From a virus (taxonomy: Duplodnaviria > Heunggongvirae > Uroviricota > Caudoviricetes): a stretch of DNA of 23,613 nt. The notes under the pieces are model-generated. The model was not told where the DNA came from and ran no database searches. It saw only the letters and a program-made list of their open reading frames with translations. Below, piece by piece: positions 4,527 through 16,573 of this stretch (its first letter is position 1; each line of letters opens with the position of its first letter). The stretch lies in the IMG/VR virus record IMGVR_UViG_2617270938_000001, one strand, 5' to 3'. The position numbers were made by a program, and so were the translations under genes.

Positions 4527-5087
4527 TATCGCGTCCTCAACAATGAATTTTGTGATGCGGTGCCTGGTGCCTCCAGGTGACGTTAACCAGTTAACAATTA
4601 ACGCCGGATACAGAGAATCCACCCATAACACTGTTTTTGGTTTTAACTGTTCCGCGTGCGCTCAGCCGCATTCACCACATCACAAAATTCACTTTAAAAA
4701 GGGCGGCAGAGCAGTCACGGAGTAAAACTGATACCGCCAAACGTCACCAGAAAATTGATAACAGAGGGCGTTGCAGCGGGGTTGTCACTTAAGCGTATGG
4801 TCAACCTGACAACCCGGTGTCCTCAACGGGGAAGGAATACCCCCGCCATACTTACCGCCGCGCCATTTCGCGGAGTGCCACAACCGGAAGCGCACGGTCG
4901 ACGAAAATTTAACGACAGGCTATCTATGAACCAACAACTTCGCCGTGTGCTTTCGCGTTATGCCCTGACTTTTCAGGGAAATATCCTTTCAGTAAACTGT
5001 CAGTGCCGGATGCTCACCCGTGTCCGGCGCACGCACTCCACCTCACCCGTGGAGAACTCCTTAATCACCAACCCTCAGGAGGGTGAA

Positions 5088-10310: not shown

Positions 10311-10651
10311 CGACTTTTACCAGAGAGCAGTTAATAGCTCACGCAGAGGAGACTATTGAAGCACAGAGACTGTGCATACCGGGCACAATCGACCATGACA
10401 TCATCCGCACATATAAGATGGATATTGCTGTTCTGGAAATCGCACTGGTATCGCTGGCAGCAGAGCCAGCCGGTAAATTGCATGAATACAAACCAGTGGG
10501 ATATCAGCGTCTGGTCGATGAGTTAACCATGCTGGTAAAGCAGTTAACCTGGCAACTGAGGAAAGCGAAGCCAGACTGCAAATTACCGGATAAGGCGATG
10601 AGTTATCTGGAGCGGAACGGACTGATAAGCGTGGAGGATATTTTACGATGA
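10307..10651 (+). CDS. hypothetical protein (114 aa), paralogous at the N-terminus and the ALxSLxAEP motif to the 55-aa gene
   Basis: [10 protein letters not shown]... with [10 protein letters not shown] versus [10 protein letters not shown] in the upstream gene; translationally coupled. Confidence 0.55.
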
Positions 10652-10731
10652 CCTGGCCTGAAGCATTAACAACGGTAGGAATTGCGATGGCGGTGGCGCT
10701 GGTGGTGTATTCGATTTGCCGCTGGGGATAA
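10648..10731 (+). CDS. possible 27-aa hydrophobic micropeptide ([27 protein letters not shown])
   Basis: ATGA overlap with the upstream stop and GGAGG about 10 nt upstream; a single TM-like segment. Very short, so speculative. Confidence 0.25.
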
Positions 10732-10942
10732 AAACGGTTTGCGGGAAAAGGAGAGTTAAGTAGAATTGCAGCGGGTGCTTGAGGCTATCTGTCTCAGGCA
10801 TGAACACCAAAAGGCAGATAGAGAAAAGCCCCAGTTAACATTACGCGTCCGGCAAGACGCTTAACATTAATCTGAGGCCATATCTATGCTCTACACACGT
10901 AGGTTAGCCTCTTACGTGCCGAAAGGCAAGGAGAAGCAGGCT

Positions 10943-11098
10943 ATGAAGCAGCAAAAGGCGATGCTAATCGCCCTGATCGTCATCTGTTTAACCGTCATTG
11001 TGACGGCACTGGTAACGAGGAAAGACCTCTGCGAGGTACGAATCCGAACCGGCCAGACGGAGGTCGCTGTCTTCACAGCTTACGAACCTGAGGAGTAA
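10943..11098 (+). CDS. hokD: Hok/Gef-family type I toxin (51 aa; matches my recollection of E. coli HokD/RelF)
   Basis: MKQQKAMLIALIVICLTVIVTALVTRKDLCEVRIRTGQTEVAVFTAYEPEE. AGGAGA SD 8 nt upstream. An in-frame upstream extension from ATG 10886 gives a 70-aa mok-like ORF. Confidence 0.9.
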   Translation: MKQQKAMLIALIVICLTVIVTALVTRKDLCEVRIRTGQTEVAVFTAYEPEE

Positions 11099-11165
11099 GA
11101 GACCAGGCGGGGGAGAATCCCTCGCCACCTCTGATGTGTCAGGCATCCTCAACGCACCCGCACTT

Positions 11166-11192
11166 AACCCGCTTCGGCGGGTTTTGTTTTTT
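11166..11192 (+). terminator. rho-independent terminator after hok
   Basis: AACCCGC-TTCG-GCGGGTT stem-loop followed by TTTTGTTTTTT. Confidence 0.7.
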
Positions 11193-11544: not shown

Positions 11545-12591
11545 GTGCGGGTATTACTTCGACCTGTTCTGGTACCGGAACTCGGGCTGGTGATCGTTAA
11601 GCCGGGCCGTGAATCCATGCCGGTATTCCACAATACCCGGGTACTGGTGGAGCCGGAACCGAAAAGCATGCGTAATCTGCCGTCCGGGGTCGTTCCTGCC
11701 GTTCGCCAGCCGCTGGTGGAAGACAAAACATTGCTGCCGTTTTTCAGTAACGCACGGGTAATTCGTGCTGCTGGTGGTGCTGGTGCATTGTCTGACTGGC
11801 TGTTGCGCAATATTAAATCCTGCCAGTGGCCACACGGCGATTATCATCACAGCGAAACCGTTATTCACCGTTATGGTACCGGCGCAATGGTGTTGTGCTG
11901 GCACTGCGACAACCAGCTGCGTGACCAGACATCCGAATCACTCGAGCAACTTGCTCATCAAAACCTGTCAGCATGGATGATTGACGTCATCGGTCACGCA
12001 ATAAGCGGTACGCAGGAGCGTGAATTATCTCTGGCTGAATTATCCTGGTGGGCGGTCCGCAATCAGGTGGCGGACGCGCTACCGGAAGCGGTATTACGTC
12101 GTTCGCTGGGGTTGCGTGCGGAAAAAATCCGCTCAATGTACCGTGAAAGCGACATCGTACCGGGAGAGCAGACCGCCACCAGCATACTGAAGCAGCGCAC
12201 AAAAAATCTTGCGCCGCTGCCTCACGCCCACCAGCAAACCCCGCCACAGGAAGAGACGGTGGTCAGCATTGCCGTTGATCCTGAGTCTCCGGAATCTTTC
12301 ATGAAACGACCTAAACGTCGCCGCTGGGTTAACGAGAAATACACACGCTGGGTGAAGACACAGCCGTGTGCGTGTTGTGGTAAGCCAGCCGACGATCCCC
12401 ATCACCTGATTGGTCATGGTCAGGGCGGAATGGGGACAAAATCTCACGATATTTTCACGCTACCGCTGTGTCGGGAGCATCACAACGAGCTTCATGCGGA
12501 TCCTCTGGCGTTCGAAGAAAAGCATGGTTCTCAGGTTGATTTAATTTTTCGTTTTCTTGATCACGCCTTTGCAACTGGCGTGCTTGGGTAA
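11545..12591 (+). CDS. DUF968-family protein (YdfU-like) with C-terminal Cys/His zinc-binding, HNH-like motif
   Basis: 348 aa, GTG start with GGAGG SD. C-terminus: CACCGKPADDPHHLIGHGQGGMGTKSHDIFTLPLCREHHNELH. Position between hok and Q matches ydfU in Qin. Confidence 0.65.
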   Translation: MRVLLRPVLVPELGLVIVKPGRESMPVFHNTRVLVEPEPKSMRNLPSGVVPAVRQPLVEDKTLLPFFSNARVIRAAGGAGALSDWLLRNIKSCQWPHGDYHHSETVIHRYGTGAMVLCWHCDNQLRDQTSESLEQLAHQNLSAWMIDVIGHAISGTQERELSLAELSWWAVRNQVADALPEAVLRRSLGLRAEKIRSMYRESDIVPGEQTATSILKQRTKNLAPLPHAHQQTPPQEETVVSIAVDPESPESFMKRPKRRRWVNEKYTRWVKTQPCACCGKPADDPHHLIGHGQGGMGTKSHDIFTLPLCREHHNELHADPLAFEEKHGSQVDLIFRFLDHAFATGVLG

Positions 12592-15469: not shown

Positions 15470-15540
15470 GGCCCTTTAGCTCAGTGGTGAGAGCGAGCTA
15501 AAGGGCCGGGTCGCTGGTTCAAATCCAGCAAGGGCCACCA
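15470..15540 (+). tRNA. tRNA-Ile-like element with aberrant anticodon arm (probable tRNA pseudogene)
   Basis: Acceptor GGCCCTT/AAGGGCC, D-arm GCTC-AGTGGTGA-GAGC, T-arm GCTGG-TTCAAAT-CCAGC and 3' ACCA are intact. The anticodon-arm region is 12 nt (AGCTAAAGGGCC) instead of 17 and is perfectly complementary to the element's own 5' end. Confidence 0.5.
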
Positions 15541-15549
15541 TATCACATA

Positions 15550-15626
15550 CCACCATTAGCTCATCGGGATAGAGCGCCAGCCTTCGAAGCTGGTTGCGCG
15601 GGGTTCGAGTTCTCGATGGCGGTCCA
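15550..15626 (+). tRNA. tRNA-Arg (anticodon TCG)-like; candidate tRNA with imperfect stems
   Basis: D-arm GCTC-ATCGGGATA-GAGC; anticodon arm CCAGC-CTTCGAA-GCTGG; T-loop TTCGAGT; 3' CCA. One A-C mismatch in the acceptor stem and two G-T pairs in the T-stem. Confidence 0.45.
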
Positions 15627-15882: not shown

Positions 15883-16080
15883 ATTGTCTGGCTGCCGGAG
15901 AATTTGTTAAAAATAACATCGCATGGTGAATCCCCCTCAGCGGCGGGGCATCTGGCAAAGTGTATGATCCAGAGAACATGCAAATTCAGTAGACAGGCTG
16001 AATTTACCGGGAGGCCCCTGGCACCATGCGACAGACAGAAATTAGGCTATACTTCAGCCCCTCTCCGGAGGGGCTTTTCT
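15883..16080 (+). ncRNA. candidate noncoding RNA element A (about 198 nt), paralog of element B, ending in intrinsic terminator AGCCCCTC-TCCG-GAGGGGCT + TTTT
   Basis: Shares blocks with 16352-16545 (ATTGTCTGGC, TTTGTTAAAAA, CGCATGGTGAATCCCCCT, GAATTnACCGGGAGGCnCCnGGCACCATGC, identical terminator hairpin). The overlapping ORFs are on different strands in the two copies, arguing against a shared protein. Confidence 0.45.
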
Positions 16081-16268
16081 GTGCAGGATGTGTCACAGTT
16101 TCCTGAATTCTGAGTACTGTCCTGTTACTCAGGGTGCTATATTTTCTGACGTGATGAAAGTCTGCCGGAAGGCGGAACGTATCGGAAATGACCCAGTAGA
16201 GAAAACGTTGACTCAGATACCGATGCTGAGTTACCGGGAAACCGGCATCACATGACCGCTATCCTTCC

Positions 16269-16351: not shown

Positions 16352-16545
16352 ATTGTCTGGCCGGCGGGAAGTTTGTTAAAAAATTTCGCATGGTGAATCC
16401 CCCTGTGCGGAGGGGTAATCAGCGAGTAGGTATATGGGATAATCGCGGATTCAGGTGCTGGTACTGAATTCACCGGGAGGCACCCGGCACCATGCAATGG
16501 CACATAGCGCCACTCTCCAGCCCCTCTCCGGAGGGGCTGTTTATA
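16352..16545 (+). ncRNA. candidate noncoding RNA element B (about 194 nt), paralog of element A, same terminator hairpin (16519-16538)
   Basis: See element A. The conserved 5' block, the GGTGAATCCCCCT block, the GGGAGGC block and the terminator are retained while the middle has diverged. Confidence 0.45.
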
Positions 16546-16573
16546 TTGATTTTGTCAGATGTGAGTAAACTCC

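Follow-up and report, generated by a model that had tools for sequence, protein, structure and literature searches.

Previously Described hok/sok Loci

In the hok/mok/sok locus of plasmid R1, the mok reading frame is out of frame with hok (mok ATG at 116–118 and hok ATG at 174–176 in the numbering of Le Rhun 2022, PMC9841398), and it is the translation of mok that matters there, not the Mok product (PMC9841398). According to the same source, the lock formed by pairing of the tac and fbi elements is a defining trait of hok mRNAs. As for the chromosomal loci, silence was argued for hokA, hokB and hokC. [quoted passage not shown]

A close relative of the locus analysed here is hokW-mokW-sokW of the Stx2 phage 933W and of Sakai prophage Sp5. 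The GenBank record of 933W already annotates mokW, hokW and sokW, and a study of 2021 characterised the copy of Sp5. According to that study (Takada et al. 2021, PMC8621323), HokW is toxic, and this toxicity is suppressed by sokW under the control of its own promoter. The sokW RNA of Sp5 is visible on northern blots, mutations of the sokW promoter in Sp5 abolish the suppression of HokW toxicity, and sokW supplied in trans restores it. At its native position, the hokW-sokW locus raises the release of Sp5 phage about twofold (same source).

The locus described below is a structurally complete and quite ordinary representative of this already known module, nearly identical to those present in thousands of genomes. 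It lies within a 23,613-nt stretch of viral DNA (IMG/VR record IMGVR_UViG_2617270938_000001; hereafter, the window), of which positions 10761–11192 represent, with high confidence, a complete canonical hok/mok/sok type I toxin–antitoxin cassette regulated by Sok RNA from the antisense promoter TTGCCT-17-TAACCT.

Genomic Context and Distribution

The cassette is carried by a lambdoid (lambda-like) E. coli prophage and is located at the early-to-late junction. It is neighboured by small early-region ORFs on one side and by a DUF968 gene, identified by profile search at 11545–12591, on the other. In the closest annotated genome, the DUF968 gene is followed by genes for RusA and the Q antiterminator. 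An Rfam scan of the whole window detected DicF, two tRNAs and two copies of STnc100, and the matching E. coli prophages carry annotated integrase, exonuclease and tail genes.

At the megablast level, a 501-nt query matched 4,961 of the 5,426 complete E. coli genomes, with a best identity of 99.4%, and identical copies of the Mok/Hok protein were found in dozens of IMG/VR prophage contigs. In RefSeq genomes, PGAP names the locus hokD and annotates a hokD CDS alone, omitting mok and the Sok RNA.

Scanning of the whole window also revealed a match of positions 10773–10948 to the full Rfam model (1–157) of RF01794 'sok', which is built on the hok-leader strand, with a score of 117.1 bits (E = 2e-26; gathering score, 59). 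The predicted fold of the full-length mRNA (10773–11192) has an energy of −169.6 kcal/mol and z = −7.3. Based on these two results, the locus as a whole is above chance.

The Toxin Gene and Its Upstream Extension

The following coding features were identified:

10943–11098, plus strand: hok ORF, encoding a 51-aa membrane toxin that matches Pfam HOK_GEF; SD GGAG at 10930–10933
10886–11098, plus strand: mok ORF, 70 aa, in frame with hok; product 91% identical to MokW
11081–11084, plus strand: TACG motif with the codon for Tyr47 inside; candidate site of A-to-I editing by TadA (Tyr to Cys)

The original prediction had placed here a 51-aa Hok-family toxin gene with its own SD, and the searches bore this out: the translated ORF 10943–11098, preceded by GGAG, matched HOK_GEF (PF01848) with 82.9 bits and its 70-aa form with 81.6 bits, the cut-off being 22. 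The amino acid sequence of Hok is 100% identical to that of K-12 HokD/RelF and 43% identical to that of R1 Hok, with the conserved residues retained. The mRNA of hokD was reported to be edited at the Tyr equivalent to that of the TACG motif (PMC5630033).

The in-frame ATG at 10886, proposed to open a 70-aa mok-like ORF, was also found. An SD of its own (GAGG, 10874–10877) lies 8 nt before this ATG, which is unchanged among the 78 unique full-length relatives. A mok frame starting 5' of hok, overlapping it and having its own SD is present, and its translation is probably coupled to that of hok. Such an arrangement is the usual one in the nearest relatives, as mokC and hokC of K-12 end at a common stop codon, and so do mokW and hokW of 933W. 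To our knowledge, the extended Mok peptide has never been excluded as a product of the in-frame members.

The mok frame is in frame in the R1-type locus used for comparison (an IncFII plasmid copy encoding a Hok 100% identical to that of R1) and out of frame in K-12 mokB, as it is in R1 itself. This variability among members fits the published view that the translation of mok counts, not its product. The 70-aa in-frame product was considered as the toxin and set aside, given the R1 requirement for mok translation rather than for Mok (PMC9841398).

Predicted Antisense Promoter and Sok RNA

On the opposite strand, and in the mRNA segment facing it, three features are relevant:

10901–10929, minus strand: Sok promoter, with −35 TTGCCT (10929–10924), a 17-nt spacer and −10 TAACCT (10906–10901)
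10824–10894, minus strand: predicted Sok antisense RNA of ~71 nt, its coordinates transferred from sokW of 933W
10874–10910, plus strand: Sok target hairpin, in which the mok SD GAGGC (10874–10878) pairs with dcb GCCUC (10906–10910); loop at 10889–10897

TTGCCT and TAACCT, 17 nt apart on the minus strand, are both present at the positions claimed for them. The pair matches 7 of the 12 consensus positions, and the antisense promoter was not called by the consensus promoter scan. Nor was the pair above chance: 7 sites at least as good as TTGCCT-17-TAACCT occur in 10740–11192, compared with 3.05 ± 1.7 in dinucleotide shuffles, and at least one such site was found in 95% of the shuffles. Since the hexamers are at chance level, their resemblance to the consensus gives no argument for promoter strength, and the Sok promoter owes its credibility to homology and conservation.

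In the alignment, the Sok hexamers share columns with TTGCGC-17-TATCCT of the R1-type IncFII plasmid. The promoter segment TAGGTTAGCC...AAAGGCAAGG is the same in the window and in 933W, base for base, over its entire length, and the annotated sokW of 933W maps to 10824–10894 of the minus strand, which places TAACCT 7 nt upstream of the RNA 5' end. Exact TTGCCT-17-TAACCT was found in 84 of 100 relatives, and the spacer is 17 nt in 99 of the 100, even where the hexamers are others. Positions 10905 and 10901, the most critical ones of the −10, do not vary among the 78 unique full-length relatives.

The RNA predicted from this promoter folds into a single-stranded 5' tail, a long hairpin and a U-rich 3' end (z = −4.6). 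It would cover the SD and start codon of mok, like sokC and sokW, with a Sok/mok overlap of 9 nt; the overlap is likewise 9 nt for sokC and sokW, and 11 nt for sokB. The sok-like geometry across the mok start, suggested in the original prediction, thus appears well founded, being supported by the columns shared with the R1-type locus, the identity to 933W and the overlaps of sokC, sokB and sokW. Judging from these alignments, the locus contains a putative cis-encoded Sok gene, with a promoter in the dcb/hok-SD region and an RNA that would extend over the mok initiation region.

An alternative explanation is that the antisense hexamers resemble a promoter by chance, that no Sok is made, and that Hok is restrained by mRNA folding (mok/tac/fbi) alone. 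The 7/12 consensus match, the failure of the scan to call the promoter and the abundance of equally good sites in shuffles speak for such an explanation; moreover, the −35 extends into the sequence immediately 5' of the hok SD and the −10 falls within dcb, and constraint on the mRNA could account for the conservation of both. Nevertheless, this explanation is highly improbable. The promoter sequence is identical to that of 933W, and mutation of the sokW promoter in Sp5 removes antitoxin activity (PMC8621323). The geometry is that of the annotated sokC, sokB and sokW, a hairpin with a U tail is rightly placed to be a minus-strand terminator, and the 17-nt spacer is kept even where the hexamers differ.

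Regulation by Sok is therefore the preferred reading, and the question of whether such a locus is regulated has largely been answered by experiment for the 94%-identical hokW-sokW (PMC8621323). The accompanying statement that chromosomal hok loci lack a functional sok is imprecise: the published work makes no claim that sok is missing from them, and K-12 has annotated sokC and sokB.

Folding and Conservation of the hok mRNA

The mRNA and its elements are as follows:

10761–10766, plus strand: −10 TAGAAT of the hok promoter, 6 nt 5' of the inferred mRNA start; assigned by homology
10773–11192, plus strand: full-length hok (mok-hok) mRNA, ~420 nt, delimited by the Rfam model start (10773) and the terminator (11166–11183)
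10773–10784, plus strand: tac, GGGUGCUUGAGG, pairing with 11147–11159
10785–10821, plus strand: 5' hairpin, CTATCTGTC...GGCAGATAG, predicted in the full-length fold
10828–10834, plus strand: ucb (anti-SD) GCCCCAG, predicted to sequester the mok SD in the full-length mRNA; element defined in PMC9841398
11106–11126, plus strand: 3'-UTR stem-loop, GGCGGGGGAG/CCCTCGCC, predicted in the full-length and truncated folds
11147–11159, plus strand: fbi, CCUCAACGCACCC, pairing with tac; nearly invariant in relatives
11166–11192, plus strand: intrinsic terminator of the hok mRNA, a 7-bp stem (11166–11183) followed by a T run

The hok −10 aligns with TATGAT of the R1-type locus. The −35 (TTTGCG, ~10738–10743) is weak, and the consensus promoter scan did not call the hok promoter. 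At the other end of the transcript, the terminator expected after hok is present, both as a stem and as a T run.

In the fold of the full-length mRNA, long-range pairing of tac with fbi is predicted in the MFE and centroid structures alike. The ucb/mok-SD pairs of the MFE structure are G56-C106, C57-G105, C58-G104 and C60-G102, with GCCCC corresponding to 10828–10832. The inverted repeat that had been noticed in the leader is real, but its arms are located at 10785–10793 and 10813–10821, slightly to the left of the interval 10794–10823 first given for it. When folded in isolation, 10871–10912 forms the SD/dcb target hairpin, with the mok AUG in the inner stem and a 9-nt loop; this hairpin is part of the Rfam consensus structure.

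In the MFE structure of the 3'-truncated mRNA, the 5' end refolds onto the segment immediately downstream, a predicted rearrangement that resembles the described metastable or tac hairpin. The tac/ucb stem is absent from this MFE; drawn manually, it would have 7 bp and a single bulged U, in the geometry of the R1 pairs U6-A70, C5-G71 and G4-C72 (PMC9841398). The open conformation is thus inferred rather than predicted, as the MFE of the truncated RNA lacks the tac/ucb stem. By analogy with R1 (PMC9841398), the stem-loop 11106–11126 probably protects the mRNA at its 3' end once it has been processed.

For the analysis of conservation, protein-seeded scans yielded 61 genomic loci and 80 loci on viral contigs. 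The sample for which variation was counted comprises 78 unique full-length relatives and is biased toward near-identical IMG/VR matches. Within it, the conserved block has sharp edges, at ~10758 (by the hok −10 TAGAAT) and at ~11186 (at the end of the terminator); the share of variant sequences is 35–50% upstream of the first edge and 0–22% at the hok −10. The positions of tac, fbi, the mok ATG and the Sok −35 are variant in 0–3% of these relatives.

The predicted full-length structure of the window was then scored for covariation on an alignment of 77 sequences. In total, 95.9% of the cells can pair, compared with 34–43% when the partners are slid by 1–3 columns, but this measure is inflated, as the window, whose own fold supplied the structure, is among the aligned sequences. 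The counts of double changes are for this reason more meaningful: 34 pairs changed on both sides, compared with 13.3 ± 2.4 in shuffles and 12–22 in the slid controls. In the same 77 sequences, the following was found for the individual helices. The tac/fbi helix is 99% paired. The 5' hairpin 10785–10821 has 96% of its cells paired and 3 pairs changed on both sides, and for the helix that unites the Sok hairpin and the ucb/mok-SD pairing, the paired share is 97.4% and 4 pairs are compensatory. The stem-loop 11106–11126 is 98.4% paired, one of its pairs being changed from G-C to A-U in 13 sequences, and 6 pairs of the terminator changed on both sides.

Compensatory changes in tac/fbi were observed in hokB (U7-A to C-G and G12-C to A-U) and in Citrobacter L057, where a change of GAGG to GAAG is matched by that of CCUC to CUUC. 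Comparison of the duplex energies of cognate and swapped tac/3'-UTR pairs for nine tac variants revealed that non-cognate pairs bind as well; this matrix is uninformative, since tac hardly varies, and the argument is based on the single compensatory changes and on the count of changed pairs. Taken together, the conservation of all regulatory elements, the sharp edges of the block and the compensatory changes imply selection on the whole circuit.

Variability of the Target Loop

The most variable patch of the module is the target loop (10889–10897), to which the 5' tail of Sok is complementary. Up to 54% of the 78 relatives are variant there, compared with 0–5% in the flanking stem, mok ATG and promoter, and more than 15 loop alleles were counted. 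In two genomes with several copies, the three loci of S. flexneri SFBU1023 and the four of E. coli ECMA0423, the copies residing together differ in the loop throughout.

This pattern might be taken to indicate that the loop 10889–10897 is a specificity determinant under diversifying selection, which keeps the cassettes of co-resident prophages orthogonal, the allele of the window being one 'incompatibility type' recognised without a canonical U-turn. Such an explanation seems rather doubtful. The loop of the 5' hairpin (10802–10812) is about as variable as the target loop among the 78 relatives, and relaxed constraint in an unpaired sequence that encodes no functional peptide explains the observations equally well and is the simpler reading. 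Diversifying selection was therefore not adopted, on account of the variability of 10802–10812 and of the bias of the sample toward near-identical IMG/VR matches.

The loop of the window, CUCUACACA, has no YUNR, while 933W, hokC and the R1-type locus have this motif there. The YUNR/U-turn reportedly has a role in the hok/sok target loop (Franch et al. 1999), and the lack of this motif could lower the rate of Sok binding.

The missing motif also bears on whether the locus works at all. It might be a structurally intact but functionally silent hitch-hiker in lambdoid prophages, releasing too little Hok to matter; four K-12 loci have been described as inactive, and the hok promoter hexamers of the window are weak. 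A silent copy is nonetheless unlikely, as every regulatory element is conserved, the module has sharp edges, and compensatory changes have accumulated. Phenotypes of the 94%-identical hokW-sokW have been measured at the native locus (PMC8621323), and the HokD peptide, which is identical to Hok of the window, is toxic when expressed.

Proposed Mechanism and Biological Role

A functional cassette, which remains the favoured reading, would most likely act in the way known from R1 and hokW-sokW. The Sok transcript, the function of its promoter and the toxicity of Hok have been demonstrated for close homologues only, and the scheme below would extend those results to the window by homology.

The weak promoter TAGAAT (10761–10766) would give rise to a stable mRNA of ~420 nt. 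In its closed form, tac (10773–10784) would be paired with fbi (11147–11159), and ucb (10828–10834) would hold the mok SD (10874–10877), so that neither ribosomes nor Sok could act on it. Slow trimming from the 3' end would then remove fbi, the 5' end would refold, and the target hairpin (10874–10910) would form. Processing of this kind is inferred for the hok mRNA, and the position of the stem-loop 11106–11126, 5' of fbi, would fit that of a protective end. Translation of mok from 10886 would open the hok start at 10943, and the 51-aa Hok would insert into the inner membrane and kill the cell or arrest its growth.

On the minus strand, TTGCCT-17-TAACCT would direct synthesis of a short, unstable Sok, from ~10894 to 10824. 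As Sok would be perfectly complementary to the SD and start codon of mok, it would be expected to block translation of mok and hence of hok, and the Sok–mRNA duplex would be marked for RNase III. Once Sok synthesis stops, Hok would be made.

The role of the cassette, as judged from hokW-sokW, is most probably to aid lysis and phage release upon induction: prophage induction would lead to the loss of Sok, the production of Hok and, in turn, to assisted lysis and release of phage. The same mechanism may serve mainly another purpose, either retention of the prophage by post-segregational killing or abortive infection/phage exclusion. This is conceivable, though the less probable option, considering that hok/sok of R1 stabilises plasmids and reduces plating of T4 (as cited in PMC8621323), whereas in the only direct data for this clade the locus enhances the release of phage after induction, and no enrichment of hok beside defence systems was found. 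With the role in release retained as the preferred one, the cassette may plausibly modulate the timing of lysis and the yield of phage when its host prophage is induced.

As a discovery the locus has little significance, since the module is widespread and annotated, and a homologue has been characterised. Its value is for annotation: the name 'hokD' hides the complete, regulated form of the truncated hokD of K-12.

Comparison with Known Systems

Alignment to hok/sok of R1 and to the chromosomal hok loci had been proposed as a check. With the R1-type locus, the Sok hexamers are matched by column. R1 hok/mok/sok (parB) has tac, ucb, the mok SD, dcb with the Sok promoter inside it, and fbi in the order observed in the window. 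It differs in its mok, which is out of frame by the numbering of PMC9841398, in being plasmid-borne and in having proven post-segregational killing; in addition, the Sok hairpin is longer in the window than in R1.

The hokC (gef)/mokC/sokC locus has an in-frame mok and the same tac sequence, and its Mok/Hok is 72% identical to that of the window. Its Sok hairpin is shorter, and the antisense-promoter hexamers at the aligned columns are different. Furthermore, hokC of K-12 is flanked by IS186 and is not prophage-borne.

The hokD (relF) gene of the Qin cryptic prophage of K-12 encodes the same Hok peptide and has the same downstream synteny, with DUF968 (ydfU) followed by Q. However, K-12 hokD matches the window only from ~10929 on, as relBE takes the place of tac, ucb, the mok start and sok; four further loci also match the window only from ~10929 onward. 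The arrangement typical of K-12 hokD, with hok just after relBE and without the mok start, tac and sok, is not that of the window. Since K-12 hokD has no leader, the window carries the complete, untruncated form of the locus.

The hokW-mokW-sokW locus of 933W and Sp5 (AF125520; PMC8621323) is 93.6% identical to that of the window at the DNA level over 470 nt. It has the same architecture, with an in-frame 70-aa mok, and is likewise carried by a lambdoid prophage; relative to hokC, both share a Sok hairpin that is ~18 nt longer. In the mok-start/target-loop region, which corresponds to the 5' tail of Sok, 6 of ~20 nt differ (CUCUACACA in the window and CUGAACACA in 933W), and the C-terminus of Hok is TAYEPEE in the window, compared with VDYESEK in HokW. 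After fbi, 933W departs from the window and does not have its terminator sequence. The locus of 933W also occupies a different place in the prophage genome, and its flanking genes are unlike those of the closest annotated genome.

Allelic Variation in the Target-Hairpin Loop

The most variable patch of the hok/mok/sok module was found in the loop of the mok SD/dcb target hairpin (10889-10897, with 10879-10898), where up to 54% of the 78 relatives are variant and more than 15 alleles occur, while the mok ATG and the stems adjoining the loop are fixed. The loop is complementary to the 5' tail of the predicted Sok RNA. The window carries the allele CUCUACACA, which is devoid of the YUNR motif, whereas this motif is present at the target loop of the Stx2 phage 933W, the chromosomal hokC locus and the R1-type locus (CUGA). 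In both S. flexneri SFBU1023 and E. coli ECMA0423, the co-resident copies each differ from one another at loop 10889-10897.

Other Signals and RNAs in the Window

The consensus scan called a sole site, TTAACA-18-TATGCT (9/12), at 10861-10890 on the plus strand. It sits inside the hok leader, where it overlaps the Sok hairpin as well as the mok ATG, and is probably a by-product of these constrained sequences. Just upstream of the hok promoter, a hydrophobic 27-aa ORF (10648-10731, plus strand) was found, the start of which overlaps the stop of the preceding 114-aa ORF (ATGA, 10648-10651). A Pfam search with this ORF gave no match; its product could be a small membrane peptide. Elsewhere in the window, Rfam models identified the following RNAs, which are cargo typical of lambdoid prophages:

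4701-4752, minus strand: DicF sRNA
15470-15623, plus strand: two tRNAs
15891-16084 and 16360-16548, plus strand: STnc100-family sRNA, two copies in tandem

Within hok itself, the Tyr47 codon is contained in a TACG motif (11081-11084), making it a candidate editing site, and a second TACG is located at 11037. TACG is the context for A-to-I editing by TadA, and edited hokD mRNA with a Tyr to Cys change has been reported at the equivalent Tyr (PMC5630033).

Annotation and Host Labels of Related Copies

At the NZ_CP025903 locus (L147, 5244-5399), as in RefSeq copies generally, the sole PGAP annotation is the hokD CDS; mok and the Sok RNA are left out, although the Rfam model detects the hok leader with a score well over its threshold. 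Near-identical copies of the E. coli-type locus were also found under non-E. coli labels (loci L010, L014, L042, L048 and L055; search hit H2), namely a Veillonella parvula MAG, Xanthomonas pisi, Acinetobacter idrijaensis, Candidatus Scatousia and a Haemophilus MAG; another is labelled "Actinobacillus phage vB_Apl-pPE4". These are short contigs in most cases, and most likely reflect contamination or mis-binning rather than true host range.

Comparison with R1 and K-12 hokD

In the R1-type IncFII plasmid locus (L003, 444-659), the Hok of which is identical to R1 Hok, an upstream ATG lies 57 nt before hok and in frame with it, whereas in the R1 numbering mok is one nucleotide out of frame with hok (PMC9841398), a 1-nt length difference in the mok 5' region of R1-type copies. 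Five partial loci, the K-12 Qin hokD (L004) along with L016, L017, L056 and L060, show similarity to the window only downstream of a breakpoint at about 10929, which falls inside the Sok -35 element. In K-12 hokD, relBE stands in place of everything upstream of this point; the window carries the hokD locus in its untruncated form.
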